From the NCBI GenBank assembly GCA_030614255.1, contig JAUWKI010000002.1, positions 4,449 to 68,448 of the forward strand: a DNA stretch of 64,000 nucleotides. Reading direction: 5' to 3'. The notes beneath the pieces were generated by a model. It made no database searches. It had not been told where the DNA came from and was given only the letters and a program-made list of their open reading frames with translations. The stretch is from Actinomycetes bacterium (GTDB taxonomy: Bacteria; Actinomycetota; Aquicultoria; UBA3085; Oleimmundimicrobiaceae). The translations under genes and the position numbers were made by a program. Within the stretch, counting starts at the first letter, position 1. The number at the start of each line of letters is the position of its first letter. Shown here one piece after another: positions 1,307-58,916 of the stretch.

Positions 1307-1417
1307 AAAGTACCTCTTAAGTCGGTAGTTAACTAGGTGGTTAGTTGGCTGGTTTGTTAGTTGGTTTTTTACTCTTTTAACCTTCAACTTTCCACTTTTA
1401 ACTTTACCCTATACCCT
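1307..1417. repeat. Heptad-periodic low-complexity spacer (GTTNNNN units, then TTTACCCTATACCCTTTACCCTC). It contains the ACTACCGACTTAAGAGG word on the minus strand, placed 14 nt before the yacP start codon
   Basis: Direct reading of the sequence shows 7-bp periodicity: gtcggta gttaact aggtggt tagttgg ctggttt gttagtt. Confidence 0.6.
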
Positions 1418-2152
1418 TTACCCTCTTATCCTTTGTCTCCTAGCTTCGCACATCAAAATGGCTCCGGCGACAGCCACATTTAAGGAATTTACCTTACCGA
1501 ACATGGGTATTTTGATAAGAAAATCGCACTTTTCCAACAAGAGCCGGGCAATTCCCTTATCTTCTCCACCTAAGACCAAACCCAATTTCCCTGATAAATC
1601 GGCCTCATAATAATTTTTTTCAGCTGACGCATCGGCTCCGAATATCCAAAAACCGTTCTCTTTTAACCTTTCAACTGCCTGCACTAAATTGCTTACTTTA
1701 ACTATGGGAATGTGTTCAATGGCCCCTGCAGAAGTTTTATAAACAACCGGCGTCACTCCCACCGAGCGTTTTTTTGAAATGATGATTCCGCTAATTCCAC
1801 AAGTCTCGGCAGAGCGAATGAGAGAGCCAAAATTCTGAGGATCGGTAATCTCATCGAGAATTAAGACTATCGGTTCAGAAATTTTTTCGACTCTAACCAA
1901 AAAATCTTCGATGGACTGGCATCTAAAATCCTCTGCGTGAGCGATGACTCCCTGGTGAACTTCGATGTGGGAAAGAGATTCTATTTTTTCTCTGGGAAGC
2001 ACCTCGACAGGCACATGTCTTTCCCCCGCTAAAACTCTAATTTTTTTAATAACTTCGGTTTCCTTGAGCCCCTGAGCAATCAATATCTTTTTGACTTCGC
2101 GCTCTCCTCTTAGCAGCTCAAAAACCGGGTTACGTCCCTCGATGATATCCAC
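1418..2152 (-). CDS. rlmB: 23S rRNA (guanosine-2'-O)-methyltransferase RlmB (SpoU/TrmH family)
   Basis: Full-length ORF with SpoU methylase motifs. It lies between cysS and yacP, the conserved position. Confidence 0.85.
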   Translation of the reverse strand: MDIIEGRNPVFELLRGEREVKKILIAQGLKETEVIKKIRVLAGERHVPVEVLPREKIESLSHIEVHQGVIAHAEDFRCQSIEDFLVRVEKISEPIVLILDEITDPQNFGSLIRSAETCGISGIIISKKRSVGVTPVVYKTSAGAIEHIPIVKVSNLVQAVERLKENGFWIFGADASAEKNYYEADLSGKLGLVLGGEDKGIARLLLEKCDFLIKIPMFGKVNSLNVAVAGAILMCEARRQRIRG

Positions 2153-2155
2153 AAA

Positions 2156-3652
2156 TCATTTCCCCTCAAAAATTATCTGGCAACCTTGAGGTGTATCTTT
2201 CAACACAAAATATTGAGCGCTAAGCTTATCTCGAATCAGATCAGCTTTTGCCCAATCTTTATCTTTCCGAGCCTTCTCCCTGGCTTCTATCAAGACTTTT
2301 AATGCTTCGTTTTTGTCCTCAAAAGTGCGCCCAAAAATCTTTTCGGCAATGCCAATCAGAGCATCCGGCAGCTCTTCAACAGCTTTCTCTACCCCGAGCT
2401 CGATGCCCAAAACCGTCATAAACCCAATCAGTTTATCGCGCGCTTCCAACAGTAAGCATTTGGCACTCTCGCTTAAATTCTTCTGATTTTTCTCCAGAAA
2501 GAAGTTCATCTCTTTAACAAATTCGAAAATGACTCCCAGAGCGGAAGCTGTATTAAAATCATCGTCCATCGCCTCAAGAAATTTGCTCTCAACCCCCACA
2601 ACAACTTCCTTGAACCGCTTTTCTCCCAAATCATCTTGTTCTGTTTTCGCGCCCGACTCAACCAGATAATTAATATTATGAATCACGGTTTTTATTCTCT
2701 CAAGCGCCGAGGCGACAGCATTCAGATTTTCCTCGCTGTAATTTATTGGGCTACGATAATGTGTTGAAACAAAGAACATCCTAAGGACATTGGGGTCATA
2801 TTCTTTTAAAATTTCTCTTACTAAAATCACATTTCCGAGCGATTTGGCCATCTTTTCTTCCTTGATATTTACAAAACCGTTGTGAAGCCAGTACTTTACG
2901 AACGGCACCTTGCCTGCACAGGCTTCCGCTTGAGCAATTTCGTTCTCATGGTGGGGAAATATTAAATCATGGCCTCCTCCGTGGATATCGAACCCCATGC
3001 CAAGATATTTGGACGACATTACCGAGCATTCTATATGCCAGCCGGGTCGTCCTTTACCCCAAGGGCTATCCCAACTGGGCTCCCTCGATTTTGCTGCCTT
3101 CCAAAGAGCAAAGTCCATCGGATGACGTTTCTTCATATCTACATCCACTCTCTCTCCGGCCCTCATCTCCTCAATCGTCCGACCGGACAACTTCCCGTAA
3201 TCCCCAAATCTCTGAATCTCAAAGAAGACGTCACCGTCTACCTCATAGGCAAAACCTTTTCTAATTAGACAGTTAATTGTCTCAATCATCTCACTTATAT
3301 GTTCGGTTGCCTTTGGTTCAATCCGAGAAGATCTGTTGCCAAGGTTCTTCATATCTTTATGAAATGCCTTAATATATTTATCGGCAATTTCCTTGGTAGT
3401 TAATCCTTCCTTGTTTGCCCGTTTTATTATTTTGTCATCGATGTCCGTTAAGTTGCGAACGTAAGTGACATCATAGCCCTTATGCTGCAAATAGCGATAT
3501 ATAACATCGAAGGCTACATAGCAACGAGCATTGCCGATGTGAATATAGTTATAGACGGTGGGCCCACAAACATACATCGAAACTTTTCCTTTTTCGCGGG
3601 GAACAAACTTCTCCTTCTTTCTGGCCAGCGTGTTATAGACCCTAAGACTCAT
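2156..3652 (-). CDS. cysS: Cysteinyl-tRNA synthetase
   Basis: 498 aa with the HIGH motif (HIGNAR) and the KMSKS motif (KMAKS). N-terminus [16 protein letters not shown] is typical of CysS. Confidence 0.95.
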
Positions 3653-4292
3653 TTTTCTTCTTCATCTCCTCAACCAGATGTTCGAGCTTGTCTATTCGAC
3701 GATGCAAAGAGTTAAACGTTTCTGCCACGGGATCGGGGAGGCGCTCATGATGAAGATCCATAGTCGGAATTTTTTTGCCTTCCCTCTTTACAACCCTTCC
3801 CGGTATGCCGACAACCGTACTGTTTGGCGGAACGGGGTTAATTACCACGGCTCCTCCTCCAACAACAGAATTTTCACCAATAGTAATCGCTCCAAGAACC
3901 GTGGCACCAACACCGATTACAACGTTATCACCAATCGTCGGGTGGCGTTTCCCTTTCTCTTTCCCTGTTCCCCCTAAGGTCACACCTTGATATAGGGTAA
4001 CATTATCACCAATTTCGGTGGTCTCTCCAACGACTATACCCATCCCGTGATCAATGAAGAAACCTTTTCCAATCTTTGCTCCGGGGTGAATTTCAATAGC
4101 AGTTAAAAAACGACTAAGATGTGATATTAATCTGGCGAAAAGCTTTAAATCCCTTGCGTAAAACCAGTGAGCTACTCTATGGGACCTAAGAGCGTGAAAG
4201 CCCGGGTAGGTCAAGAATATCTCCAAGGTATTTCGCGCCGCAGGATCTCTATCTTTAACTGCCTGGAAATCACTTCTTAAGGTATCAAACAA
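3642..4292 (-). CDS. cysE: Serine O-acetyltransferase
   Basis: Hexapeptide-repeat left-handed beta-helix sequence ([24 protein letters not shown]). Sits between gltX and cysS. Confidence 0.9.
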
Positions 4293-5751
4293 GCTCCATT
4301 GCCTCCTCGATTCTCTCCAAACATTTCTCTTTCCCTAAAACCGAGATTACATAAAACAACTCCGGGCCGGATATCCTGCCGGTGAGAGCCGCACGAATAG
4401 GATGATAAGTTCCTTTTCCTTTAATATTTTTCATCTTCAATCTGCCGGCAACTTCCTTGAGAAGTACTTTTGCCATGTCAATATCGATTTTGTCCTCTTT
4501 CTCTAAAACTTCCTTGAGTATTTTAAGCACAGTTGGAATCTGCTCGCCTTTTAATATCTCTAAAGCATCCTCACTATAATCAAGCTTTTCTTCAAAGAAA
4601 AGCTTGGCACTCTTTACCACATCAGAGAGGGTCACAAGATTCGTCTGCACCGCTTCCACGACCTTTTCAATCCAAGCAATTTCTTCAATCGAAGGCTCAG
4701 ACGCAATATATCCTGCTTCCTTAAGATAGGGCAAAACCAAAGAAGTTAATTTTTTAAGCGGCAATCGTCTTATGTGCTGGCCGTTTATCCATTTAAGCTT
4801 ATCAATATCGAAGATAGCCGGACTTTTTGAAATCCTGTCTATTGAAAAAGCTTGAATTAGTTCTTGGGGAGTGAAAATCTCTCTACCATCACTGGACGAC
4901 CAACCAAGAAGAACAAGGTAGTTGACGAGCGCGCTTGGAAGAAATCCTTGTTTTCGATACTCTCCTATCGATGTCGCCCCGTGCCTCTTGCTAAGCTTCG
5001 CGTGATCCGGGCCTAAAGCCATCGAATTGTGAGCAAACTTTGGAACCGGATAACCCAATGCCTCAAAGAGAAGGATATGCCTAGCGGAGTTTGCGAGGTG
5101 ATCTTCTCCCCTTATGACATGGGTTATTTTCATGGTTGCATCGTCAATTACAACGGCGAAGTTGAAACTCGCCATTCCATCGGAGCGAATTAAAACGAAG
5201 TCTCCGATAACATCGCTATCGAATTCGACGTCGCCTTTGACCAAATCGTGAACCACAATTTTTCTTTTTGGAATTCTAAAACGTATGGTGGGTTTACGAC
5301 CTTCTGAGATTAAACGCTGCTCATCCTCAGGGGTTAAATTCCTGCAACGCCCATCATATTTCGGCATAACTCCCCGCTCAAGCGCTCCCTTGCGGTTCCT
5401 TTCAAGCTCATCCTCGGTGCAATAGCACCGATAAGCGAGCTCTTTTTCCAAGAGCTCGATGGCCATCTTTTTGTATAGTTCCCCACGTTTGCTCTGATAA
5501 TAAGGTCCGTAGTCGCCGCCAACCTCCGGCCCCTCATCCCAATTCAGCCCCAACCACTTAATATCTTCAATAATGGACTGCTCGTACTCAACAGCTGAAC
5601 GGCTGCGGTCTGTATCCTCAATTCGTAATATAAAAACACCGTTCTGACTCCTAGCAAAGAGCCAGTTAAATAAGACTGTTCTGGATGCCCCTATATGCAG
5701 ATGCCCCGTGGGACTCGGAGCAAACCTTACCCGAACATTTTTCAAAAACAC
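4285..5751 (-). CDS. gltX: Glutamyl-tRNA synthetase (copy 1)
   Basis: 488 aa with HIGH-type motif ([10 protein letters not shown]) and KLSKR. Probable GTG start preceded by an AAGGAG RBS. Confidence 0.95.
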
Positions 5752-5825
5752 ACACTCCTTATAGTCATCAGTTGACAGTCGGTAGTCGGGAGCACATTCT
5801 AATTAAAAAATAAAGTATAAGAATG

Positions 5826-5871
5826 CCCTGCCGGCAGGCAGGAAAAACGATATAGAAAAATTTAAAATGGA
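5826..5871 (-). repeat. Dispersed element R2 copy a: CCTGCC-NN-GGCAGG hairpin plus the 21-mer TATAGAAAAATTTAAAATGGA, in the gltX upstream region
   Basis: The 21-mer at 5851-5871 is identical to 41567-41587. A palindrome of the same type lies 8-13 nt to its left in both copies. Confidence 0.6.
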
Positions 5872-5965
5872 GCAAAATTCTTAAAAAGATCATCTAGAAA
5901 CTTTTTTAATTCTTAATTTTAGTTTTTCGCTTTTCATTCTCCATTTTTCACTTAACTTTACCCTT

Positions 5966-6439
5966 TTATTTTTCCTTTAACAAAACAACCGCTTGAGCGG
6001 CCATGCCTTCGCGTCGTCCGGTAAAACCCATTCCTTCTGTAGTCGTAGCCTTGAGACTTATTTGCGATTTATCAACTTTTAAAACCTTAGCAATTTTTTC
6101 TCTCATTTCCTCCCAATAAGGAGATAGTCTGGGCTCTTGTAAAATCACTGTAACATCCAAATTCTCAACCTTATACCCCTTTGAAAACATAAGCTTCGCA
6201 ATATTCGCAAGTAAGTCTAGACTATAAATGTTCTTATAGTTACTGGAGATATCCGGAAAATGCCGACCTATATCGCCCTCGGCAATAGCACCTAAAATTG
6301 CATCGATGGCCGCGTGGATCAAGACATCGGCATCCGAATGACCCTCCAGGCCTAGGTGATAGGGTATTTCAACCCCCCCTAAAACCAGAGGACGCCCTTC
6401 TATAAATCTATGCGCATCATAACCGATTCCAATCCTCAT
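5966..6439 (-). CDS. ispF: 2-C-methyl-D-erythritol 2,4-cyclodiphosphate synthase
   Basis: 157 aa. [12 protein letters not shown]...GHSDADV motifs are typical of IspF. Confidence 0.95.
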   Translation of the reverse strand: MRIGIGYDAHRFIEGRPLVLGGVEIPYHLGLEGHSDADVLIHAAIDAILGAIAEGDIGRHFPDISSNYKNIYSLDLLANIAKLMFSKGYKVENLDVTVILQEPRLSPYWEEMREKIAKVLKVDKSQISLKATTTEGMGFTGRREGMAAQAVVLLKEK

Positions 6440-7128
6440 TTTGTAAATCCCTTTTTTCTTAAAATCCCCTCTGCCACCTCTAAATCTTCTTGTGTAGTAA
6501 TCTTTATATTGTCGTACGAACCCATAATCATTCTCACCTTATAACCAAGTCTTTCAAGAAGCATAGAATCATCTGTCCCATAAATATTATCTCTCCTGGC
6601 TTTCCCGTGGGCCTCCTTTAAAACAGAGGTTAAAAATACCTGTGGCGTTTGAGCGCACCAAATACTTTCTCTAGGTAGAGTTTTGTCAATACTCTCACCG
6701 CCAACTATTTTCATCGTATCCTTCGCTGGAACGCCAACCACCACACCATCCCAGCCCTCAAGAGAGGATATCGCCTCAACTAGAATTTCTTGGGTTACAA
6801 GCGGCCTCGCCCCATCATGAACCAATACAACTTCCGCCGTTGGAGGAATGAAGCTTAATCCATTGCAAACCGAATCTTGCCTTTCCTCACCACCTTCTAT
6901 TATTTTAGAGACCTTTTTAAAACCATACTTCTCTACGACCTTTTCTCTACAAAACTCCACATCATCTACGTTAACCACAAGCATCACTTCGTCAACCGCG
7001 GAACAATCTTCAAAGACAGACAAGGTATGTGATAAGACCGATTTTCCCAACAAGGGTAGATATTGCTTACTACATCCTGATTTCATCCGGCTACTTTTCC
7101 CCGCCGCGACAATAATGGCTATTTTCAT
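6436..7128 (-). CDS. ispD: 2-C-methyl-D-erythritol 4-phosphate cytidylyltransferase
   Basis: 230 aa. [15 protein letters not shown] and the overlap with ispF are typical of ispD-ispF. Confidence 0.95.
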
Positions 7129-8198
7129 TTGTCCTTCGCCATGCCTTTTTCCTCGTTTTTTAGCTTTGTAAAGATCATTCTTCCCGCCGAAGTCTGTAAG
7201 ACACTCGTCACAAAAACCTTAACTTCTTCGCCTGTGTAAGCGCTTCCACTCTCGACAACTACCATAGTGCCATCCTCTAGATAACCTACTCCCTGGCCAA
7301 CCTCTTTGCCTTCTTTAACGACGTATACATTCATTTCCTCGCCAGGGAGAACCACAGGTTTTAAGGCATTTGAAAGCTCGTTTATGTTGAGAACCATGAC
7401 ACTCTGCAACCCTGCAACTTTATTTAAATTGAAATCATTCGTAATTATGGGCAAATTCATGTCTTTACCCATTTGGACCAATTTCTCGTCAACACCCGAA
7501 GCTTTCGGGTAATCTTTTTCTACTATCTTTACTTTTACGTTTGATCCTCCTTGTAGTTCATGGAGAACATCTAAACCTCGACGGCCTCTGCTCCTTTTTA
7601 GCGAATCTTCTGAATCAGCTATGGTTTGGAGCTCTCTTAAAACAAAAATGGGAACAATCAACTCCCCACTTATAAAACCGGTTTTACAAATATCGGCGAT
7701 GCGTCCGTCTATAATTACACTAGTATCAAGAATTTTTTTTCGGGGAATGAGTGTTTTCCCATGTGCTTTAGGCTGACTTAAGAACCTGAAACTCAAACCA
7801 ATATCTTCCCTCTTTCGCAGCCCAAGCCACATCCCAAGATAGCCTAATATTACAAAGACGAGTACCGCTAAGTAAGGTCCAAATACTGTAACTCTCCAAA
7901 GAGGTAACGATATGAGGGTTGCTAAAATTAACCCAATAATCAAACCGGTAATCCCCACAATAATATCTAGAAGGGGTACTTTTTGAATAGCCCCTTCCAT
8001 CCAATTCAAACCCTTGGCGATCCGTGTGCCGACCGTGCCTCCTATTAAATACCCTACTCCAGCGCCAATTATAATATATAATATGATGCCTATAAACGGT
8101 GACCCCGGGATAGGAAGTTTATAGAAGCTCGCCAGTTCGGCTCCACAAACTGCGCCAAGGAGAGTAAACACCAAACGGATAATAGTAACTAACATCAA
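7125..8198 (-). CDS. yacL: PIN/TRAM-domain membrane protein (YacL-like)
   Basis: N-terminal transmembrane segments followed by PIN-like and TRAM-like regions. Conserved position upstream of ispD. Confidence 0.75.
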
Positions 8199-8344
8199 AC
8201 TCTCCTCCTGCTAATAATCTTTTTTTATATTTTTTTCCTTGCCTCCTTTCTTAAGTTTTCTTAAAAAAATGATAACACAATCTTGAAAACACAGTCAAAA
8301 AGAACATTGTTTAATAAGGATATTTAACAGGGATTTTTTCTTTC

Positions 8345-8374
8345 TTGACAATCAAAATAAATAAAATCTATAAT
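8345..8374 (+). promoter_or_regulatory. Near-consensus sigma-A type promoter: TTGACA, 18 nt spacer, TATAAT
   Basis: ttgaca atcaaaataaataaaatc tataat, about 35 nt upstream of an AAGGGTGA RBS and the ATG at 8410. Confidence 0.7.
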
Positions 8375-8409
8375 GGTTTCAGTCTAAACTATCTATAATA
8401 AAGGGTGAC

Positions 8410-8808
8410 ATGATGAGCGATAGGGTATGTAAGGAATTTCAAGGCACCGTTTCTGATTACTTAATAAGACATAGAAGCATTCTCGATGTAATGTCGAAAC
8501 TTCAAGAAGCAACCGCTCACGTGAACAGAGCGATAACCAAAGCCGTGACCAGTTGTGGGTGTCTAAAAATTGAGGCCTCGAAACAACCAATTCCTAAAGA
8601 AGCAAACTTATCTGAAATAGCAGAATATGTGCGAACTCACCTGGAAGGAAACCTTTGTCCCAACTGCCTTGATACTATCGAGGCTGAATTGGGAAACACA
8701 ATGTTCTACGTAGCAGCCACATGTACCCTTTTAAATTTAGACCTCGAAAAAATTATTACTCATGAGAACGATCGAATTTCCACTCTGGGCGTTTACAGCC
8801 TAACTTAA
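8410..8808 (+). CDS. Small Cys-rich hypothetical protein (C-x41-CGC-x31-CPNC) encoded on the opposite strand inside the radA-disA-yacL-ispDF block
   Basis: 132 aa ORF with a strong promoter and RBS. Possible metal-binding Cys motifs. I do not recognise a family. Confidence 0.5.
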   Translation: MMSDRVCKEFQGTVSDYLIRHRSILDVMSKLQEATAHVNRAITKAVTSCGCLKIEASKQPIPKEANLSEIAEYVRTHLEGNLCPNCLDTIEAELGNTMFYVAATCTLLNLDLEKIITHENDRISTLGVYSLT

Positions 8809-8826
8809 GTCAGCTACCAGTCTTCC

Positions 8827-8875
8827 GCCATCAGCCATCTGCCACCAGCCATCTGCCATCTGCCATCAGCCATCT
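8827..8875. repeat. Perfectly phased heptanucleotide tandem repeat (GCCATCW)x7
   Basis: gccatca gccatct gccacca gccatct gccatct gccatca gccatct. It is flanked by further 7-periodic spacer (gttaaag gttgaaa gtggaaa ... on the minus strand) up to the disA stop. Confidence 0.85.
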
Positions 8876-8971
8876 AGTTTTTTTGACTCTTGACTAGCGA
8901 AGTGGTTGACTTTTGACTTTCCTTTTACCTTATACCCTTATCTTTACTTTCCACTTTCAACCTTTAACTAA

Positions 8972-10042
8972 TCAGATATATCTTTCCAAAACACTGTGGT
9001 CTCGGAGTCTTTTTAGTCCTTCCCAGATAGCTTTCGCTCTAACCTCACCTATACCCTCAACCTCATCTAAATCTTCTATACTCGCTTCGAGAATAGTCTG
9101 CAAGTCCCCGAATTTCTTTATGATTTTACTCACTATTGTTGCCGGAAGACGTGGAATCTGTCTAAGGAGACGATAACCCCTGGGATGAACAACCTTGTCC
9201 AGAATATTTACAGTATCGCCCTCATATCCAAGTATCCGACATATATTGGTTAAATCCAGCAATTCATCGGAAGAAAGTTCTCCAAGTTCTCTCCCGGTTT
9301 TTTCAGCCCGCCTGCTGTCCTTGCAATAATCTTTTAGAACCATCATATTGTCTTCCTCGACGTGAGCCATAAGCTCATCTAACTGCATCTTTATCAATCG
9401 ACCTTCGGAGCCAAGCTCGCTTATGTAGCGTTCTACTTCATCAGAAACCCTTTTCACCATTTCAAACCTTTGAATAATCGTCGTTACATCCAAGAGCGTT
9501 ACAAAATCCTGAAATTCAAGAGAATTCAAGTTGGAAGAGACCTGATTGAGTCTAACTTTATATTTCTCAAGTGTCTGCAAAGCCTGATTGGCCTTGGCCA
9601 AAAGCGCTCTGATATCTTCGAGCGCATATTTGTAATTGTTCCAATATAATGATATTGCATCCCGTCGCTGTGAAATTGAGACTACTAAAGCGTTGGTCTG
9701 CTTCGCCACCCGCTCAGCGGTTCTGTGTCGCATTCCGGTTTCATCCGTTGTAAGCGTTGGATCTGGCACAAGGTGAATATTTGCACCCAAAATTTTCTTC
9801 AAATCCTCATCTAATACAATGGCACCATCCATCTTGGTTAATTCAAAAAGCTTCTGAGGTTGGAACTCAACATCCAGTCTAAAACCACCATCACAAAGCT
9901 TCCCAACTGCTTCAACATCGCCAATAACAATTAAGGCTCCTGTTTTCGCGCTTATAATTTGCTCCAAAGCATCGCGCACTGCAGTGCCTGGAGCCACCTT
10001 CTTCAAAACATCAATTAAAGTCGTCTTCTTTTTACCGCTCAA
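8972..10042 (-). CDS. disA: DNA integrity scanning protein DisA (diadenylate cyclase)
   Basis: 356 aa with a DAC domain (N-terminal GALIVIG... region) and a C-terminal HhH region. Follows radA. Confidence 0.9.
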   Translation of the reverse strand: MSGKKKTTLIDVLKKVAPGTAVRDALEQIISAKTGALIVIGDVEAVGKLCDGGFRLDVEFQPQKLFELTKMDGAIVLDEDLKKILGANIHLVPDPTLTTDETGMRHRTAERVAKQTNALVVSISQRRDAISLYWNNYKYALEDIRALLAKANQALQTLEKYKVRLNQVSSNLNSLEFQDFVTLLDVTTIIQRFEMVKRVSDEVERYISELGSEGRLIKMQLDELMAHVEEDNMMVLKDYCKDSRRAEKTGRELGELSSDELLDLTNICRILGYEGDTVNILDKVVHPRGYRLLRQIPRLPATIVSKIIKKFGDLQTILEASIEDLDEVEGIGEVRAKAIWEGLKRLRDHSVLERYI

Positions 10043-10059
10043 ACTTCAAACCACCCCAA

Positions 10060-11415
10060 TCATTGATTTAAATATTCCAACGCTTCTTGAACGTTTCTCA
10101 CGGGCAAAAGCTCGATATCTAAACCTTTTTCTTCTATATCGGCATCTTGTGCCGGTAAGATTACCCTCTTAAATCCAAGGCCTGCCGCCTCGGCTAAACG
10201 CTTCTCAACCTGGCCTACAAATCTTACCTCTCCAGCTAACCCGATTTCACCAAAAGCAACTATATCAGCCGGCACCTTTTTATCGAGATAGGATGAGGCC
10301 ACAACAAGCGCAATCCCTAAATCCACCACTGGCTCCACAACTCTTATTCCCCCCGTGATATTCGCATAAACATCGCATTTTTCAAGGTGGAAACCCATTT
10401 TTTTCTCAAGGACCGCCAAAACTAAAGAGAAGCGATTAGAATCTAGCCCCGAGCAAAGACGTCGGGGAAAATTTAAATAAGAGTTAGATGTCAAACCTTG
10501 CAACTCAACAAGAAGAGGACGATTGCCTTCCATCGTAACAACCACAACAGAACCCGGCACATTGGTAGGCCTCTCGGCTAAAAAAAGCGCCGATGGATTT
10601 ACAACTTCCGTAAGACCCTTTGAAGTCATCTCAAATATACCGACTTCATTAGTTGAACCAAAACGATTTTTAACCGCTCTTATCACTCGATAGTTGCGAT
10701 GTGTATCCCCCTCAAAATATAGAACTGTGTCAACTACATGTTCTAATATCTTAGGTCCAGCTATAGAGCCATCTTTTGTTACGTGCCCGACAATAAAAGT
10801 TGGGAGACCCCTCGTCTTAGCCATTCTAAGTAGCCGTCCCGTAAATTCTCTTACTTGGCTTACACTTCCCGGAGCAGAAGAAATATCGGAACAAAACATC
10901 GTCTGGATCGAGTCGATAATGAGAAGTGTCGGATCTATCTCCTCAATCTGACTCGCAATATAGTCAAAATCGGTTTCACACAAAATAAACTGGTTGGGGG
11001 AGAGTTGTCCTAGTCTGTCCGCCCTCATCTTTATCTGTCTGGCCGATTCTTCACCTGACACAATTAAAATTCTATCACCAGATAGTGCCATGTTGTTAGC
11101 GACTTGAAGAAGAAGGGTGGATTTCCCTATACCAGGAATTCCGCCAAGCAATACCAGAGAACCGTTTACAATGCCTCCTCCTAAAACTCTATCAAGTTCC
11201 GGAATTTGCGTCGGGAGGCGCTTTTTCTCTGCACCTTTTACACTGGTTATATCCTGAGCAGGATTAAATGAATTAAAAGCATTGCCTTTTGGGGTCTCCA
11301 TGATGGGCTCTTCAACAATCGTGTTCCATCCTCCACACCCTGGACACCTTCCTAACCACTTCGAGGAAGTATAACCACATTCTTGGCAACGCATTATGGA
11401 TTGAACTTTACGCAT
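10060..11415 (-). CDS. radA: DNA repair protein RadA (Sms)
   Basis: 451 aa with an N-terminal Zn finger (CQECGY...CPGC), a Walker A motif (GGIPGIGKST) and a Lon-like C-terminus. Confidence 0.95.
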   Translation of the reverse strand: MRKVQSIMRCQECGYTSSKWLGRCPGCGGWNTIVEEPIMETPKGNAFNSFNPAQDITSVKGAEKKRLPTQIPELDRVLGGGIVNGSLVLLGGIPGIGKSTLLLQVANNMALSGDRILIVSGEESARQIKMRADRLGQLSPNQFILCETDFDYIASQIEEIDPTLLIIDSIQTMFCSDISSAPGSVSQVREFTGRLLRMAKTRGLPTFIVGHVTKDGSIAGPKILEHVVDTVLYFEGDTHRNYRVIRAVKNRFGSTNEVGIFEMTSKGLTEVVNPSALFLAERPTNVPGSVVVVTMEGNRPLLVELQGLTSNSYLNFPRRLCSGLDSNRFSLVLAVLEKKMGFHLEKCDVYANITGGIRVVEPVVDLGIALVVASSYLDKKVPADIVAFGEIGLAGEVRFVGQVEKRLAEAAGLGFKRVILPAQDADIEEKGLDIELLPVRNVQEALEYLNQ

Positions 11416-11426
11416 ATTGACTCTTT

Positions 11427-13871
11427 CTAGCTTAGCCCCACCTTTTCCTTCTCAGAATAAAACACTATCCTATCATCTTTGGCGTCAGCTTTAATCTTAT
11501 GCTCTCCTGCAAAATTTCCACGCAAAATCGCCTCTGAGAGGGGATCTTCAACCAAACGCTGAATTGCACGTCTAAGTGGCCTCGCTCCAAGAGCACGGTC
11601 ATATCCTTTTTTAGAAAGCAATGTCTTTGCTTTGTCGGTCAAGGTAATTGATATATTTTTCGTCCTAAGTTGTTCTTCAATCCGCTTAATCATCAAATTG
11701 ACAATGACCTTGATATCTTCTTCTCGAAGCCTATGAAAAACAATAATATCATCCACCCTATTTAAAAACTCGGGGCGAAAGGTGCGCTTAAGTTCGCCTA
11801 TCACTTTTTCCTTCATTTCGTTATAAGATAAGGATTCGTTTGATTCCTTCGAGAAACCAACCCGAACGGCCTTCTGAATCATCTTGGCGCCAAGGTTGGA
11901 TGTCATAATCACGATGGTGTTCTTAAAATCAACAGCGCGACCCTGAGCATCTGTCAACTTCCCATCCTCAAGTATCTGTAAAAGGATGTTGAAAACGTCC
12001 GGGTGGGCCTTCTCGATTTCATCAAACAAAACAACTGAGTACGGTTTACGCCTTACGGATTCGGTAAGTTGACCTCCCTCATCGTAACCAACATATCCAG
12101 GCGGGGAGCCAATCAACCTCGATGTGGTATGTTTTTCCATATATTCCGACATATCGAATTGCAAAAGAGCATCCTCGTTCCCGAAAAGATACTCAGCCAA
12201 AGTGCGGGCTAGTTCCGTTTTACCAACCCCTGAAGGACCGAGAAAAATAAATGAGCCCATTGGCCTCCGAGGATCCTTCAAACCAGCCTTGGTCCTTCGA
12301 ATAGCTTTGGAAATGGCTTTAACTGCTTCGTCTTGCGCAATGACCCTTTTGTGAAGAGCTTCCTCCATGCGAAGTAGTTTAGCTGATTCCTCTTCCGTTA
12401 TTTCTACTACAGGAATTCCCGTCCATACAGAAACGACTTCTGACACCTCTTTCTCTTCGACTTTTTCCGCACTCCTGAGTTTGGGATTCTTCCAATCTTC
12501 ATCAGCTTGTCTCTTTTTCTTAATTAGAGACTTTTCTTTATCACGTAAATCGGCGGCCTTCTCAAAATCCTGTTCCTTTACCGCTGCCGCCTTTTCTTTC
12601 CTTACTTGTTGTAATTCGTTCTCAATCTCCCTCAAACTGGAAGGAGCCGTCATCGACATCAATCTGACCTTAGATGCCGCTTCATCTATTAAATCAATAG
12701 CTTTATCAGGCAAAAACCTATCGGATATATATCTATCTCCAAGATGAGCCGCGGCAGAAATTGCGTCGTCGGTAATACTTACACGATGATAAGCTTCATA
12801 GCGATCTCTTAACCCTTTTAAAATATTTATCGTCTCATCGACAGTAGGTTCATCGACCATAATCTGTTGAAACCTGCGCTCCAAAGCGGAATCCTTCTCG
12901 ATATATTTCCTATACTCATTCAATGTGGTAGCACCAATAGTTTGGATTTCACCACGCGCAAGGGACGGCTTGAGTATACTAGCTGCATCGATGGCTCCTT
13001 CGGCTGCACCAGCTCCAACAAGAGTATGAAGTTCATCAATAAATATGATGACATCGCCTCTGTTTTGAATCTCTTTCATAACCTTTTTTAATCTTTCCTC
13101 AAACTCTCCACGATACTTAGAGCCAGCAATCAACGAGCCCAAATCCAACGCATATATCTGTTTACCCTTTAATGTCTCAGGAACCTCATTTTTGGCTATG
13201 AGCTGAGCTAAGCCCTCAACTATCGCTGTTTTGCCCACCCCGGGATCACCTATTAACACGGGGTTATTTTTGGTTCTTCTCGAAAGAATTTGCATCATTC
13301 TCTCTATCTCTTTTCGCCGGCCTACTGTGGGATCAAGCTTATTCTCTAAAGCATAACGAGTAAGATTTCTTCCAAACTCATCGAGAAGAACTTTCTTGCC
13401 TTTTACCGCCTGTGATTCTATCATTTTATCCTCATAGTGCCCACTTAGAAGTTGAACAGTCTGTTCCTGAACACTTTCAAAACTAACTCCTGACTCCTCA
13501 AGAATCCTCGCCGCAATCCCTTCCTTCTCCCTTATCAAGCCAAGCAAAATATGCTCGGTTCCAATATAGTTATGTCCAAGTTTTAAAGCTTCTCTTAGGG
13601 AAAGTTCCAAAACCTTTTTGGCGCGGGGCGTGAAGGGAATATGGCCAGTTAGCTCAGCAGACCCCATCTCAACTTCTTCTTCGACCCGCTCCCGAACATC
13701 GTCTAGACTAACACCCAAATTCTCCAACACTCTGACGGCAATGCTTTCACTCTCACGAATTGCCCCCAATAGAAGGTGCTCCGTCCCGACATAGTTCTGT
13801 TTTAGAGTCTTAGCTTCTTCTTGAGCAGAAACAATTGCTCTCCTAGCTCGTTCGGTAAATCTCTCAAACAT
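11427..13871 (-). CDS. clpC: ATP-dependent Clp protease ATP-binding subunit ClpC
   Basis: 814 aa with two AAA+ modules ([16 protein letters not shown]), a UVR-like middle region and an N-terminal Clp_N repeat. Confidence 0.95.
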
Positions 13872-14936
13872 TTAAATCGTCCCCTCCCGCAATTCAAATA
13901 GCTTGCGTTTTATAAGGTTCGCTCGAGCTATAGACTCCGAGTCTTCATCAACATCTTTCCCAATAAAATCACGAAGGTGCGCGGTTCCTATGAGCATCAT
14001 CAGTTTTGCTATCTGATTACGATTCAAGTTGGGCAAAATCTTAAGATCGATACCCAAGCGAATCATCGAAAGGTACTCGATTGCTTCCTCGAAAGAGATT
14101 AATTTTGCATGGGCAAGAACCCCCCATGATCTCGAAATCTCGTCTAGTAACCCGATTTTTCTCTCCTTCATCAAAATTTGCCTAGCGGCCCTTTCTCTCT
14201 CTATTATATTTTTCGACACGCTCTGCAAGTTATCGACAATTTCGTCCTCGGACTTACCCAGCATCACCTGACTGGACACCTGATAAAAATTCCCCGCCAT
14301 ATTGGTTCCCTCTCCAAAGAGTCCTCTCACAGTTATACTGGAACTCGATAAACTCGAGAACAATGATTCCACTTCCTCGTTAATTACCAAACCCGGTAAG
14401 TGCATCATGACTGAAGCCCTCATGCCAGTACCGATATTAGTTGGACACTCAGTCAAATATCCCCAGCGCGTAGAGAACGCATAAGGCAAACGCGAGCTCA
14501 ACTTACTATCTATTCCGTCCGCAATTTTTAGGGCCTTTTGAAGTTGGAACCCAGACAAGAATGCCTGGATGCGAAGATGATCTTCCTCGTTAACCATGAT
14601 ACATAAATTGCTGTTTTCCTCGCTTAAAATAACTGCCAGGCCCTTCTTGTCGCTATCGAAGCTCGAACTTATCAAGTGTTTTTCGACCAAGATATTCTTT
14701 TCTTGCGGGACAAGCTCTTCAGAAAAGATTAGGGTGAAACCATTAAGGTCTTGGTCACGACCAATGGCTTTTGAGATAAAATTGCGAACTTCGCTTAATT
14801 GAACTTCGGTCGCCCAATAAGGAAAGACAAAATTTTCTAAATTTCTAGCGATCCTTACCCTGCTGCTTACAACCACGTCCGAGTCAGAACTATCGCTCTC
14901 TATCCAATTGCCGAAATCTGATTTTAAAGTAATCAA
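13872..14936 (-). CDS. mcsB: Protein-arginine kinase McsB (ATP:guanido phosphotransferase family)
   Basis: 354 aa. Phosphagen-kinase-like sequence, positioned between mcsA and clpC. Confidence 0.9.
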   Translation of the reverse strand: MITLKSDFGNWIESDSSDSDVVVSSRVRIARNLENFVFPYWATEVQLSEVRNFISKAIGRDQDLNGFTLIFSEELVPQEKNILVEKHLISSSFDSDKKGLAVILSEENSNLCIMVNEEDHLRIQAFLSGFQLQKALKIADGIDSKLSSRLPYAFSTRWGYLTECPTNIGTGMRASVMMHLPGLVINEEVESLFSSLSSSSITVRGLFGEGTNMAGNFYQVSSQVMLGKSEDEIVDNLQSVSKNIIERERAARQILMKERKIGLLDEISRSWGVLAHAKLISFEEAIEYLSMIRLGIDLKILPNLNRNQIAKLMMLIGTAHLRDFIGKDVDEDSESIARANLIKRKLFELREGTI

Positions 14937-14937
14937 A

Positions 14938-41748: not shown

Positions 41749-41759
41749 ACTCTATATCC

Positions 41760-46940: not shown

Positions 46941-46953
46941 ATAGCTGATGTTT

Positions 46954-47015
46954 GCCCGCCTCCCCGCCTGCCTACGCCTATGATGCCGTTAGGCATTGGC
47001 GGGCAGGTGGCGGAG
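46954..47015. terminator. Extended GC-rich inverted repeat (GCCCGCCTCCCCGCCTGCC ... GGCGGGCAGGTGGCGGAG) downstream of the radical SAM gene
   Basis: Member of the CCCGCC/GGCGGG hairpin family, with an inner GCCTA/TAGGC hairpin. Confidence 0.5.
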
Positions 47016-47033
47016 TTTATGACTAAAATAGTT

Positions 47034-47110
47034 ATTGGTCATTGGTTCTTGGTTATTAGCTGGGGGCTGAAGACTGGAAGCTGGAAGCTGCGCTATCGAC
47101 TAATTGGGGT
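47034..47110. repeat. Eleven phased heptamers upstream of mqnA (ATTGGTC ATTGGTT CTTGGTT ATTAGCT GGGGGCT GAAGACT GGAAGCT GGAAGCT GCGCTAT CGACTAA TTGGGGT)
   Basis: Direct reading. The TTGGTCA unit equals cyanobacterial STRR2. Confidence 0.8.
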
Positions 47111-47116
47111 GTAAAA

Positions 47117-51867: not shown

Positions 51868-51970
51868 GAACCACGCCCCCTTACCTCTCGATACAATTAT
51901 AACGTAAGTGCCCTTAATAAGACTTCAATTTTTCAACACAGGCATCAACTATAGATAAAACTTCCTTATG

Positions 51971-52036
51971 ATTTTCATTCTCCACTTTTTCGTAAGACCA
52001 GGCAACTCTGTGCCAGGTATTTGGCATTTAACTTTA
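51971..52036 (-). repeat. Dispersed ~60 bp element R1 copy 2
   Basis: About 90% identical to 41688-41748. Lies about 100 nt upstream of the AmrS-like gene start. Confidence 0.6.
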
Positions 52037-52039
52037 CCC

Positions 52040-52260
52040 ATTACCCTATACCAACCAGTCGGTAGTTTCTTAGTGGGAAGTCGGCAGTTTGCCGGCCAAA
52101 TTACTGATTTTACTATATTCCATATTCTATACTCTATATTCCATTCACCATCTGCTATCTGCCCCGCCAAAGGCGGGCAAGCATCTGCTATCAGCTATCT
52201 AGTCGGTAGTCCGTAGTCTGGAGTCGGTAGTTTGTTGGCTAGATTGCTGGTCTTACTATA
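52040..52260. repeat. 220 bp spacer built from phased heptamers (ATAYTCY units; AGTCGGT AGTCCGT AGTCTGG AGTCGGT) plus four GTCGGYAGT words and a CCCGCC-AAAG-GCGGG hairpin
   Basis: Direct reading. Lies between tRNA-Arg and the AmrS-like gene. Confidence 0.75.
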
Positions 52261-52262
52261 CT

Positions 52263-52338
52263 CTATACTGTTTGGCGCGCTCGACGGGATTCGAACCCAC
52301 GACACCAGGCTCCGGAGGCCTGTGCTCTATCCACTGAG
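52263..52338 (-). tRNA. tRNA-Arg (anticodon CCG)
   Basis: 76 nt cloverleaf GCGCTCGTAGCTCAGTGGATAGAGCA...CAGGC-CTCCGGA-GCCTG...GGTTCGAATCC...CGAGCGCGCCA with CCA encoded. Confidence 0.85.
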
Positions 52339-52446
52339 CTACGAGCGCATAAAACCAGTTAACAATAAGTAGTTGGTGGTTAATAGCAAGTGATGGTGAC
52401 CGTTTCTTCTATCTTTACTACTTATTTATTATGCTCGTACAATTAA

Positions 52447-55241: not shown

Positions 55242-55420
55242 TAATCTTAAATTAACAGAGAAAATTTGACAAGGAAGAAGTAAAAAGGAGAGGTGATAAT
55301 TTACTTAAATGGTTATTAGTATTCAATTGTTACCGTCCTAGTAGCAGAATCCCAGCCAATGCCCTCTTCATCAATGCCAAGTGAAAAGACGATGTGTCTA
55401 CTTTTTAATTAGTAAATTTT

Positions 55421-56263: not shown

Positions 56264-56340
56264 TGGTGGCGCATACGGGGCTCGAACCCGTGATCTCCGC
56301 CTTGAGAGGGCGGTGTCCTAGGCCACTAGACGAATGCGCC
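56264..56340 (-). tRNA. tRNA-Glu (anticodon CTC)
   Basis: 77 nt GGCGCATTCGTCTAGTGGCCTAGGACA-CCGCC-CTCTCAA-GGCGG...ACGGGTTCGAGCCCCGTATGCGCCACCA with a Glu-type D-arm and CCA encoded. Confidence 0.8.
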
Positions 56341-57208: not shown

Positions 57209-58444
57209 ATGAGTTCTAGCTTTTCCAAAAATCGAGGTTGGACCGTCACCCTGGCAGGTACTGGAATTAACCTGGCTCTCGGTGTCTTATATACTTGGAG
57301 CATCATCGCCAAAAAAATGACAACTGACTGGGGTTGGTCTTCATCAAACGCTTCTATGCCCTACGCGATTGCCTGTGGTGTTTTTGCAATAATGATGGTT
57401 TTTGCCGGTCGCGCGCAGGATAAATTGGGTCCGCGCATTGTCGCCTCCGTTGGTGGCGCCCTAACAGGCCTTGGCATGATTCTTGCCAGTTTTGCCACAA
57501 AAGGTAATATGACCTTGATGATTTTTGGTTTTGGAATTCTAGCGGGCACGGGCATCGGTCTTGGATATGCTTCTGCAACACCAGCGGCAATCAAGTGGTT
57601 CCCGCCAGCTAAAAAAGGTCTTATCACGGGGATAGTGGTTAGCGGCTTTGGTCTTGCTTCCGTTTATATTGCTCCCGTCACCGAAGCTCTGTTGAAGAAT
57701 TTCGGCATCAACCAAACTTTTTTGATTCTCGGTATCGCTTTCTTCATCATAACAGTTGGATTATCTCAATTTTTAAACAATCCCCCATCTGGATACATTC
57801 CTGCCGGTATGTCAGCTTCTTCGGCTTCAACCACGGCTAGCTCTAAAAAACACGAGTATGACTGGCACGAAATGATTAAGACTCCCCAATTCTACTTACT
57901 ATGGTTAATGTATGCCTTCGCTGCATTTGCGGGCCTTATGATTATTGGTCACTTGGCCAAAATCTCCGCTGCTCAACTACCCGGTGTTAATCTAGGATTC
58001 CTCTTGGTTGCCATCTTGGCCATTGGTAACGCTTCCGGTCGAATCATCGTTGGCAGTGTTTCTGATAAACTAGGCCGTACCCGCACAATGCTTCTGGTTT
58101 TTCTGTTTCAAGCGCTGATGATGGGGGTCTTGGCCATATCAACCACATCAATCCTTTTAATTGTTTCCGCTACTTTAATCGGCTTTAACTACGGCGCCAA
58201 TTTATCATTGTTCCCCGCAGCTACCGCAGACTACTTTGGCACTAAGAATCTTGGCGTCAACTATGGCCTAGTCTTTACAGCCTGGGGCGTTGGAGGCGTA
58301 TTCGGCTCACTGGTTGCGGGAAAAATTGTCGATGCTACCGGTTCTTACTCAACGGCTTACTTGATTGCAGCAGTTCTTTGTATTATTGCTTCAGGAATAA
58401 CCTTTATTACTAAAGCTCCAAAGGAAGTCTGTGCTAAAGCATAA
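57209..58444 (+). CDS. MFS transporter (oxalate:formate antiporter-like family)
   Basis: 411 aa, 12 predicted TM helices, MFS signature. Confidence 0.8.
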   Translation: MSSSFSKNRGWTVTLAGTGINLALGVLYTWSIIAKKMTTDWGWSSSNASMPYAIACGVFAIMMVFAGRAQDKLGPRIVASVGGALTGLGMILASFATKGNMTLMIFGFGILAGTGIGLGYASATPAAIKWFPPAKKGLITGIVVSGFGLASVYIAPVTEALLKNFGINQTFLILGIAFFIITVGLSQFLNNPPSGYIPAGMSASSASTTASSKKHEYDWHEMIKTPQFYLLWLMYAFAAFAGLMIIGHLAKISAAQLPGVNLGFLLVAILAIGNASGRIIVGSVSDKLGRTRTMLLVFLFQALMMGVLAISTTSILLIVSATLIGFNYGANLSLFPAATADYFGTKNLGVNYGLVFTAWGVGGVFGSLVAGKIVDATGSYSTAYLIAAVLCIIASGITFITKAPKEVCAKA

Positions 58445-58558
58445 GCGGTAGGGACTACATGAACCACAAACTAAAATATTATTTTCATATGAATTTTCCA
58501 GCTAGATTTCGCCAAAGCGATAGAGTAATTTCATTTTTCATTGAGGATTAAAGAATGT

Positions 58559-58632
58559 TGGCTGGGGAGGAAGGATTCGAACCCTCGCAACGGGATCCAG
58601 AGCCCCGTGTCCTACCACTAGACGACTCCCCA
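58559..58632 (-). tRNA. tRNA-Gln (anticodon CTG) with a U1-A72 first pair
   Basis: 74 nt TGGGGAGTCGTCTAGTGGTAGGACA-CGGGG-CTCTGGA-TCCCG...GAGGGTTCGAATCCTTCCTCCCCAGCCA. The CCCCAGCCA 3' end and U1-A72 pair are tRNA-Gln hallmarks. Confidence 0.75.
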
Positions 58633-58679
58633 CTATAACCAAGTATAAATATTATCATAAAATTAAGTTCCAAGTCCTT

Positions 58680-58916
58680 CTTGAGATTGCCGCGTCGCCT
58701 AACGGCTCCTCCCGCCAGAGGCGGGCAGGCATAATGACGGGGAAGTGTTGCTCTAATCTCTCTACTTGATTTCTACTGAGTGTTGATATTGAAATTAATG
58801 GTAATTCATTGAAACTAATAGTAATTTATGGTAACTAACTGAAATTTCCACCAATTACCACTTAATCTCCACTTAATTACAACTTAATTTCTATTTAATC
58901 CTTACCCCTATCCCCT
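58680..58916. repeat. Heptad-periodic spacer between the gltX copy 2 stop and tRNA-Gln (TTAAT/GGGTAAW units), with a CCCGCC-AGAG-GCGGG hairpin
   Basis: Minus strand reads GGGTAAT GGGTAAA GGGGATA GGGTAAG GATTAAA ... in phase for more than 150 nt. Confidence 0.7.

Follow-up and report, generated by a model that had tools for sequence, protein, structure and literature searches.

Short imperfect heptanucleotide arrays fill about a quarter of the gaps between genes in a 64-kb stretch of an Aquicultoria (Actinomycetota) genome

The window analyzed here is a 64-kb stretch of contig JAUWKI010000002.1, and positions below are those of this whole window. It carries rlmB, yacP-NYN, gltX, ispF, disA, mcsAB-clpC, panB and panC, folE, folP and folK, mqnE, and a VitK2_biosynth gene. 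About one quarter of the gaps between its genes are built of short imperfect 7-nt tandem repeats drawn from a common motif set, and these arrays are the subject of this work. Neither coding DNA nor the divergent promoter regions contain them. A reading of the window made from its sequence alone had drawn attention to the repeats. The gene identities it gave were confirmed, but the affiliation with Firmicutes that it drew from synteny was wrong. The host is uncultured and belongs to the Actinomycetota, class Candidatus (Ca.) Aquicultoria, and is close to Ca. Oleimmundimicrobium. The nearest species-representative genomes by DisA are Ca. Oleimmundimicrobium americanum UBA3085 (83%) and an Actinomycetota metagenome-assembled genome (MAG; 80%), and FolK homologues carry matching taxon names (Actinomycetota, class Ca. 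Aquicultoria). In the literature collection searched, no paper mentions the genus.

The periodicity is specific to intergenic DNA and to 7 nt. Pooled intergenic DNA (~6.9 kb) has an identity of 0.318 at lag 7, 0.301 at lag 14 and 0.292 at lag 21, and ~0.28 at other lags. Coding DNA shows the usual 3-nt periodicity, and its lag-7 identity is only 0.246; the intergenic excess proposed as a check on the repeats is thus present within the window. At lag 7, six segments passed a strict sliding scan (28 nt, at least 68% lag identity, lags 4-12), compared with zero or one for every other lag. Of these six, four scored as intergenic, and the remaining two (52107-52152 and 52183-52237) fall in the open reading frame (ORF) 51968-52216. 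Because this ORF was judged spurious and dropped, all six segments are counted as intergenic. A looser scan found 21 segments at lag 7 (898 nt), 18 of them intergenic as read from their coordinates, and 2-7 segments at lags 5-11. Tandem Repeats Finder reported period 7 at 1374-1424, 8827-8874, 32256-32286, 34945-34970, 41654-41702, 47031-47090, 52115-52144 and 52200-52231.

A per-spacer shuffle test covered the 31 spacers of at least 40 nt. The lag-7 signal is strong (p <= 0.002) in eight of them: 1307-1417, 5752-5965, 8809-8971, 32228-32461, 34779-34978, 41469-41759, 46941-47116 and 51868-52272. It is weak (p 0.01-0.04) in three, 52349-52446, 55242-55420 and 58633-58916. No lag-7 signal was found in the other 20, including all four divergent promoter spacers; divergent spacers carry consensus promoters, such as TTGACA-18-TATAAT at 8345-8374. 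The periodicity is therefore real, but the initial description, that spacers across the window are made of phased heptamers, is overstated. Seven of the nine regions listed in it hold. Region 36966-37258, given there as a weaker case, has a lag-7 identity of 0.23 (p = 0.33) and lies in an insertion of ~540 nt. Region 58680-58916 has mostly periods of 10, 11, 20 and 22 nt with a weak lag-7 signal (p = 0.01), and is heptameric only at 58894-58935. The strong heptamer spacer 41469-41759 was missing from that list. An explanation by helical phase or curvature was rejected: a 10-11-nt signal is absent except at 58788-58900.

The array-bearing features are as follows, with units in the sense of the flanking genes where a sense is given.

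1307-1434, minus strand: rlmB/yacP spacer. Lag-7 identity is 0.49 against 0.33 at other lags (p = 0.002), with strict and loose scan segments. A C-free purine/U array (AGGGTAT AGGGTAA AGTTAAA AGTGGAA AGTTGAA GGTTAAA) comes first, then a G-poor array (AACCAAC TAACAAA CCAGCCA ACTAACC), CTACCGACTTAAGAGGT (ribosome-binding site) and ATG.
5752-5965, minus strand: ispF/gltX spacer, a copy of the dispersed element A (p = 0.002; alignment with copies elsewhere). The order is head GGGTAAAGTTAAGTG, purine heptamers AAAAATG GAGAATG AAAAGCG AAAAACT..., a complementary T-rich arm, a GC hairpin with a T-rich tail (5843-5826), and CCGACTA CCGACTG TCAACTG ATGACTA directly 5' of AAGGAG.
8809-8974, no strand assigned: disA/orf132 convergent spacer (lag 7 = 0.58, p = 0.002). 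(GCCATCW)x7 at 8827-8875 is followed by TTGACTY and CTTT/ACCC-type units (8904-8974).
32228-32461, minus strand: panB/panC spacer (p = 0.002). The 5' arm is CCACCAG TTATCAG TCGTTAG CTACCAG and the 3' arm is GCTGGCG GCTGGAG ACTGGGG GCTGGAA GCTAGG, followed by CTACCGACTTAAGGGTG and ATG.
34779-34978, minus strand: folP/folK spacer (p = 0.002). The 5' arm is GCCGTCA GCCTCCA GCTCTCA GCTTTCA, the center is ~110 nt and non-repetitive, and the 3' arm is CCTGGTG GCTGTAA GCTGGTG ACTGGTA GCTAA, with the ribosome-binding site GGGGTG after it.
41469-41759, minus strand: amidase/tilS spacer, an element-A copy (p = 0.002; alignment, 94% over 49 nt to 51868-52446). Element A is interrupted by the 35-nt insert CCAGATACCTGGTACAGGGTTGCCTGGTCTTACGA; purine heptamers AAAAATG AAAAATG AAGAATG TAAAACG, an inverted T-rich array and, near the 3' end, TGATGGC are present.
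46941-47116, plus strand: spacer between mqnE and the VitK2_biosynth gene (MqnA/D family, Pfam PF02621), detected by Tandem Repeats Finder and by shuffling (p = 0.002). A GC-rich hairpin (46953-47015) precedes TTGGTCA TTGGTTC TTGGTTA TTAGCTG GGGGCTG AAGACTG GAAGCTG GAAGCTG, which are followed by CTATCGACTAA and TTGGGGTG (ribosome-binding site).
51868-52272, minus strand: spacer downstream of tRNA-Arg(CCG) (p = 0.002; loose segments 52019-52052, 52107-52153 and 52183-52237). CTACCGA CTCCAGA CTACGGA CTACCGA and AGATAGC TGATAGC are followed by the GC hairpin GCCCGCCTTTGGCGGGGC, then AGATAGC AGATGGT GAATGGA ATATAGA GTATAGA ATATGGA and a second CCGACT group. GGGTAAT GGGTAAA and an element-A head with the 35-nt insert come after these.
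58894-58935, minus strand: array spanning the stop codon of the second gltX copy (58917-60404), GGGTAAT GGGTAAA GGGGATA GGGGTAA, with strict and loose scan segments.

The arrays are short (3-7 units), strongly degenerate and mosaic. The (GCCATCW)7 array scores 6.9 copies of period 7 with 85% matches in Tandem Repeats Finder, and its periods of 14 and 21 match at 88-92%. The 58894-58935 array has four G-tracts on the sense strand and therefore could form a G-quadruplex; L030 12360-12435, in a locus from a relative, belongs here too. Two ORFs are likely annotation traps. ORF 51968-52216 (83 aa) is spurious and made of repeats, and a TTG start at 1387 stretches yacP through the array as ORF 803-1387. 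Annotators should be aware that such repeats create spurious ORFs, and that Firmicute-like synteny misleads the taxonomy of this actinobacterial genome.

When each spacer is read in the direction of its neighboring genes, it proves to be a mosaic drawn from a small common vocabulary. Immediately after stop codons, GGGTAAA, GGGTATA or GGTAAAG units occur with the purine-rich units GTGAAAA, ATGGAGA and ATGAAAA. Further classes are GATGGCW/GATAGCW, RCTGGNR with its complement CCAGNNN, and the C/A-rich AACCAAC/ACTAACC. NNNGACT units (CTACCGA, CCGACTG, CAACTGA, TGACTAT) stand directly 5' of a canonical Shine-Dalgarno (SD) sequence, as in CTACCGACTTAAGRGGTG-N4-ATG upstream of yacP and panC in the window and of yacP in L001. 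GC-rich hairpins (GCCCGCC...GGCGGGC) inside arrays form the last class. The NNNGACT/NAACTRA units are oriented with the gene and occupy positions 10-45 nt before the start, 5' of the canonical SD rather than replacing it. AGTCGG and CGGTAG are ~10-fold enriched in intergenic DNA, with strand biases of 9:1 and 7:0. The plus-strand mqnE operon (46941-47116) again has its RCTGGNR and CGACTAA units in the sense of the genes; this single case favors a link to transcription over one to replication. The arrays are co-oriented with their flanking genes and most likely form part of their mRNAs.

The same composite modules are found at unrelated junctions, which the sequence-only reading had missed. The dispersal data come from an all-against-all spacer comparison and one alignment of element-A copies. 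Element A is ~170-200 nt long and consists of a head (GGGTAAAGTTAAATG), a purine heptamer array, a variable center and a complementary T-rich arm. It occupies ispF/gltX in the window, L001 and L002, and both folP/folK and panB/panC in L031. The two L031 copies are 90% identical over 175 nt, and match the window ispF/gltX copy at 93-96% over 67-69 nt. Window spacers 41469-41759 and 51868-52446 contain a subfamily with a common internal insert of 35 nt (CCARATACCTGGYACAGRGTTGCCTGGTCTTACGA, at 41690-41724 and 51985-52020, minus strand). The insert is located at the same position in both, contains two small hairpins and is absent from other copies, and it is either a nested sub-element or a subfamily marker. 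The head motif GGGTAAAGTTAAATGA has stop codons in all three frames. Another module, GATRGC-hairpin-GATRGC downstream of tRNA-Arg (52150-52200 in the window), recurs in the folP/folK spacer of L030. Different window spacers have 58 exact 12-mers in common, whereas shuffles gave a mean of 7 and a maximum of 17; the control consists of shuffles only, a coding-sequence control having been discarded since its sampled segments overlapped. The presence of the same composite modules at different junctions in different genomes indicates that these are dispersed elements, not only products of local slippage. At folP/folK, genomes about equidistant from the window (FolK 71-72% identical), L030 and L031 among them, carry three unrelated elements. 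Replacement, and not slippage alone, therefore contributes to the turnover of spacer content.

The arrays are restricted to a lineage of Ca. Oleimmundimicrobium-like Aquicultoria. We gathered 22 metagenome loci through the conserved gene at 8410-8808 (labeled L001 and so on, with the window as W). An intergenic lag-7 excess is present in the window's own genome and in the close relatives L001/L013 and L002/L007. It is weaker in a clade of ~50% GC (L008-L012) and absent in the more distant loci L014-L025 and L028; L026 and L027 have 122 and 405 nt of intergenic DNA, too short to judge. Spacers at disA/orf132, ispF/gltX and rlmB/yacP measure 45-78 nt in distant relatives and 111-214 nt in the window. 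Because the junctions are short in array-less relatives, the arrays lengthen what are otherwise short junctions, and the idea that they replace short junctions is borne out where junctions are comparable. The orthologous rlmB/yacP spacer of L001 is also heptameric, with other units. Orthologues of the disA/orf132 spacer (109 nt in L001, 61 nt in L002) contain AGATGGC, GGTAAAA and CCGACTA units in changed order.

Arrays also change by whole units. The panB/panC spacer is 86-98% identical to that of L029, and exactly one 7-nt unit is missing in L029 (CCAGTTATCAGTCGTTAGCTACCAGG in the window, CCAGTTGTCAGCTACCAGG in L029), so variation in unit number between orthologous spacers, another check proposed at the outset, was observed once. 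L030 has a near-perfect (GGATTAA) array of ~5 copies. Strains of 99.7-99.9% identity differ in length only where 8- and 9-nt tandem arrays have gained or lost whole units. Strains of the 50%-GC clade have (CCGATTCA) in 3, 4 or 5 copies, and their ATTCGCTCC unit also varies. In the window's species, the only indel between L032 (6000-6030) and L033, which are 99.7% identical, is one 9-nt TTAATAGAA unit (2 versus 3 copies). This array directly follows a tRNA gene on its 3' side, ~950 nt outside the window start. The folP/folK spacer (200 nt) behaves differently. Its alignment with the L029 spacer shows a single substitution and a single 1-nt indel (99.5% identity in 208 aligned nt), whereas the coding DNA flanking it is ~63-83% identical and other spacers in the same comparison are 87-91% identical. 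The conserved tract (34779-35005; L029 9770-10000) extends from ~30 nt inside the 3' end of folP to the folK start, and either strong constraint or recent exchange accounts for it. No small ORF in the folP/folK and panB/panC spacers is convincing, and an 89-aa antisense ORF outruns the conserved tract.

Several array spacers are predicted to fold. In minimum free energy (MFE) folds of the rlmB/yacP, panB/panC, folP/folK and ispF/gltX spacers, the 5' array pairs with an inverted 3' array. The panB/panC fold is a series of 6-bp helices split by 1-nt mismatches with a period of 7, and its stem is closed a few nucleotides past the stop codon of panB on one side and shortly ahead of the ribosome-binding site of panC on the other. 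The folP/folK fold is an end-to-end stem. Duplexes between the two arms have z-scores of -3.7 (panB/panC), -3.05 (folP/folK), -2.4 (rlmB/yacP; -2.2 in L001) and -2.3 (panB/panC of L031). These models make hairpin formation plausible in some co-transcribed junctions. A search of Rfam (gathering thresholds and E <= 0.5) returned only three tRNAs and one weak match in coding DNA, with no family over the spacers.

The proposal that arrays lie inside operons is consistent with the co-directional rlmB/yacP, panB/panC, folP/folK and mqnE/mqnA-family junctions (111-234 nt in the window). The panB/panC, folP/folK and mqnE/mqnA spacers contain no terminator-like site and only weak (9/12) promoter-like matches; the sole one in panB/panC is on the opposite (plus) strand at 32294-32321. 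Terminator-like hairpins are found in the ispF/gltX spacer and in 41469-41759 (at 41554-41539). Therefore not all array spacers are intra-operon junctions, and this part of the proposal does not apply to every array.

Repeats of other kinds are found in two more spacers. The ftsH/folE spacer measures 597 nt in the window and 78-123 nt in L029 and L030. The extra ~540 nt are bounded by a perfect 18-nt direct repeat, TAACAAAAAGGCCACCCG (36810-36827 and 37367-37384). They are GC-rich, contain several hairpins, and have no ORF of at least 70 aa and no Rfam match. Pieces of this sequence match other spacers of L031 (91% over 46 nt and 94% over 32 nt), and it looks like an inserted element of another, non-heptameric kind. 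Tandem periods of 20 and 11/22 nt (ATTGAAACTAATAGTAATTC in 2.5 copies and AATTACAACTTAATCTCCACTT in 2.1 copies) are found at 58788-58900, in the gap that separates the second gltX from tRNA-Gln, and form a class different from the heptamers.

We lean, by a little over even chance, toward a lineage-specific family of mosaic intergenic repeats made from degenerate tandem heptanucleotides, shaped by slippage and by dispersal or recombination of modules between junctions. Slipped-strand mispairing would create the arrays and resize them by one or a few units per step. Composite modules would then spread or be exchanged between junctions through recombination or some mobilization mechanism. Such a module would combine a head (GGGTAAAG) and a purine array with an inverted arm and a GC hairpin, and would also include GATGGCW or RCTGGNR arrays as well as an NNNGACT array beside the ribosome-binding site. 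One vocabulary would consequently fill different junctions in different genomes. Arrays would survive where a 7-nt unit is harmless, that is 3' of genes, in co-directional or convergent junctions and after tRNAs. In panB/panC, folP/folK and rlmB/yacP, the 5' array and inverted 3' array may pair in vivo into a long helix of 7-nt period, which would place the stop codon of the upstream gene beside the ribosome-binding site of the downstream one. By analogy with the proposal for cyanobacterial STRR hairpins, such a helix could stabilize the transcript or couple translation. The periodicity, its restriction to the lineage, the unit-step indels and the dispersal of modules are observations, whereas transcription of the arrays, hairpins in vivo, any regulatory effect and the reason for 7 nt are inferences.

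Several points weigh against this explanation. About 69 kb of this genome was examined, which bears on how abundant the arrays are genome-wide. Mobility is read from distribution, because no target-site duplications, terminal inverted repeats of known insertion sequences, or transposase/RAYT gene were identified (window proteins were scanned). The strain-level polymorphisms are in 8- and 9-nt units, and the 7-nt units contribute a single between-species indel. The near-identity of folP/folK to L029 is not predicted by a largely neutral model. The arm-arm duplex is not significant in other spacers, and end-to-end complementarity is absent in about half of the array-bearing ones. Whole-spacer folding z-scores are modest (-0.7 to -2.9) and comparable to those of some array-less spacers. 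RNAalifold on five element-A copies gave only -3.2 kcal/mol and one compensatory pair; because this support is weak, we claim no conserved RNA structure for element A. Finally, since nearly every gene is on the same strand, orientation with respect to transcription cannot be told apart from orientation with respect to replication, and the plus-strand test is one spacer.

There are alternatives. If a replication or repair bias of the lineage had left neutral slippage debris, arisen in place, immobile and functionless, then shared motifs would reflect composition and convergence. Unit-step indels, degenerate and fast-changing arrays at orthologous junctions, the weak covariation and the attribution of heptamer excess in many bacteria to polymerase slippage (PMC4679880, PMC4692102) are all consistent with this. 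We nevertheless think it unlikely, since non-orthologous junctions share modules of 50-175 nt at 90-96% identity, non-repetitive parts included, and the data already indicate that module copies at different junctions resemble each other more than the divergence of the genes around them would permit. In addition, 58 12-mers are common to different spacers against ~7 in shuffles, strand bias is strong, and the position beside ribosome-binding sites is fixed; the near-identity of folP/folK to L029, despite flanking coding DNA of ~63-83% identity, is also contrary to it. The repeats could also be classical non-autonomous transposable elements, either miniature inverted-repeat transposable elements (MITEs) or REP/BIME-like elements, mobilized in trans by a transposase or RAYT elsewhere, with the heptamers internal to inverted repeats. 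Dispersed copies with subfamilies, one with a 35-nt internal insert, inverted arms and wholesale spacer replacement between genomes argue for this reading, and the ~540-nt ftsH/folE insertion with its 18-nt direct repeat shows that insertions do occur in spacers. It also appears improbable: neither termini nor target-site duplications could be delimited for heptamer elements from the available occupied sites, and the window proteins scanned include no transposase. Element-like boundaries are missing from many arrays, such as (GCCATCW)7, which are plain tandem repeats, and every copy points the same way with respect to genes, an unusual pattern for MITEs.

The heptamers might instead be cis-acting RNA signals, tandem sites for an RNA-binding protein with a footprint of ~7 nt (cold-shock-domain, S1-type or a ring-shaped regulator), which would control translation initiation or termination at operon junctions, as was proposed for the TAACTGA repeats of Beggiatoaceae. 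NNNGACT/NAACTRA units lie directly 5' of the SD in sense orientation at several genes in at least three species, and resemble TAACTGA in sequence and position (PMC4679880). Motif classes are ordered, with purine units after stops and GACT units before starts, and the folP/folK spacer is more conserved than coding sequence. We doubt this reading as well. No binding protein was identified, 2-3 of 7 unit positions are variable, and many genes are without arrays. Sister genomes swap motif classes at the same junction with no obvious change of gene order, and a canonical SD is present, so the arrays are not needed to replace it. A bolder version, which we regard as a long shot, is a functional junction code. 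Ordered classes (stop-proximal GGGTAAA/purine units, inverted CCAGNNN/NNNCTGG arms and SD-proximal NNNGACT units) would be read by a protein of ~7-nt footprint, or folded into helices of 7-nt period that pass ribosomes on between successive cistrons. Cyanobacteria, giant sulfur bacteria and a deep actinobacterial lineage would each have evolved or acquired this device (STRRs, TAACTGA repeats and the repeats here) independently. This would imply a common heptamer-generating or heptamer-reading machinery, and the folP/folK near-identity to L029 would reflect strong selection on the element. Chance or assembly artefact, the latter a concern raised with the first description, is almost certainly wrong. 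Only the short length of individual arrays speaks for it, whereas p <= 0.002 is reached in eight spacers with a signal specific to lag 7, and related species have arrays at the same junctions. Three independent assemblies agree as well: Logan assemblies of two runs are 100% identical to window positions 1-20042 and 5833-20042 (20 and 14 kb), and an ENA assembly has 3 substitutions in 7,071 nt, with both arrays there unchanged.

Some neighboring genes deserve comment. The gene at 8410-8808 (plus strand), convergent with disA, encodes a 132-aa protein with only a sub-threshold DUF1573 match. The protein is 91% identical in L001, which shows that the gene is real, 87-91% identical in the closest relatives and 47-61% in distant Aquicultoria-like loci, and it is more conserved than most neighboring housekeeping genes. 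Two glutamyl-tRNA synthetase (GluRS) paralogues, ~50% identical, are encoded at 4285-5751 and 58917-60404. The second adjoins tRNA-Gln(CTG) and is near tRNA-Glu(CTC) (tRNAs at 56264-56340 and 58559-58632). Together with the neighboring tRNAs, the paralogues suggest a pair of discriminating and non-discriminating GluRS. The minus-strand gene at 22206-24044 encodes an NHL/ScyF-like beta-propeller protein of 612 aa that has a C-terminal PxKF domain. The gene's tandem repeats of 138-144 nt (and 279 nt) at 22847-23671 are coding and unrelated to the heptamers. A search for the protein encoded at 62683-63822, made to extend the window at its right-hand end, found no record of it.

The repeats can be compared with several known systems. 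Mosaic or palindromic intergenic repeats include REP/BIME and ERIC of enterobacteria, BOX/RUP of pneumococcus, Correia of Neisseria and MIRU of mycobacteria. Like the elements here, they are dispersed and modular, ~100-250 nt long, with imperfect hairpins. They are transcribed, as the elements here most likely are, and MIRUs also lie between operon genes and are co-oriented with them. Multiple similar copies at non-orthologous sites, as found here, are a hallmark of the MITE and REP/BIME type. MIRUs differ: their tandem units measure 40-100 bp and carry small ORFs that overlap the neighboring genes, whereas the units here are 7 nt. We know of no internal 7-nt periodicity in any of these families, and of no sequence similarity between them and the repeats here. 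Among the longer simple repeats of bacterial intergenic DNA, heptanucleotide repeats are the most common kind; to our knowledge, neither the reason for the 7-nt unit nor a function has been established for STRR, TAACTGA or GGGAATC repeats.

Mrazek et al. (2007), as summarized in PMC4679880 and PMC4692102, described an over-representation of heptanucleotide repeats in bacterial intergenic DNA and proposed that it relates to the stretch that DNA polymerase contacts. Long simple sequence repeats (LSSRs) have units of 5-11 nt, among which heptamers predominate (Mrazek 2007, summarized in PMC4679880). Close relatives differ in the GGGAATC/GGGGAYT repeats of Xanthomonas and Nostoc, which sometimes form inverted pairs (PMC4692102). 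The repeats here share with these the 7-nt excess in intergenic DNA, variation in length and sequence between close relatives, occasional inverted pairs, and G-tract units (GGGTAAA, GGGGATA) that could form G-quadruplexes. As in LSSRs, arrays are longer than chance, excluded from coding DNA, and change in copy number by whole units between relatives. However, units here are far more degenerate, several classes are concatenated per spacer, and whole modules are dispersed. Exact GGGAATC units are at chance level in the window.

TAACTGA repeats are found shortly before start codons in marine Beggiatoaceae, in some Cyanobacteria and in some Bacteroidetes (MacGregor 2015, PMC4679880). They partly resemble the repeats here in forming short heptamer sets (2-6 copies) in forward orientation just upstream of starts, with a patchy phylogenetic distribution. 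By eye, CAACTGA, TGACTAT, TAACTAA and CCGACTA match TAACTGA at 4-6 of 7 positions. Unlike TAACTGA repeats, units here precede a canonical SD rather than replace it, and are one of several motif classes per spacer. Exact TAACTGA is at chance frequency, with 2 and 5 isolated occurrences on the two strands of the window and no tandem pair.

The short tandemly repeated repetitive (STRR) sequences of heterocystous cyanobacteria are 7-bp repeats, which form hairpins between hupS and hupL and for which transcript stabilization or translational coupling was proposed (PMC2670836). Compared to the STRRs of Calothrix, Nostoc and Anabaena, the repeats here are alike in having tandem 7-nt units, an intergenic location including operon junctions, several unit families per genome, and inverted arrays that may form hairpins. 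They differ in phylum, in arrays of 3-7 degenerate, mosaic units rather than long, near-perfect ones, and in being embedded in dispersed composite elements. The term STRR-like, applied to the repeats from the start, is apt for their tandem 7-nt units, their confinement to non-coding DNA and the predicted hairpins of some inverted arrays, but the canonical STRR units are not used. STRR1 (CCCCAGT), STRR2 (TTGGTCA) and STRR3 (CAACAGT) occur 1-7 times per strand in the 64 kb (~4 expected) and never in tandem, so the reported identity of some units to STRR1 and STRR2 is literally true for single occurrences at chance frequency. The repeats here thus belong to a known class, STRR-like intergenic heptamer repeats, without being strict STRRs or members of the TAACTGA family and without calling for a new category. 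The lineage is an independent, phylum-distant and tractable case of an old puzzle, namely why 7 nt and with what role, if any. Its arrays are short, their small vocabulary is ordered with respect to stops and ribosome-binding sites, strand bias is marked and modules are dispersed. Several related MAGs hold different elements at the same junction, which makes the question easier to approach.

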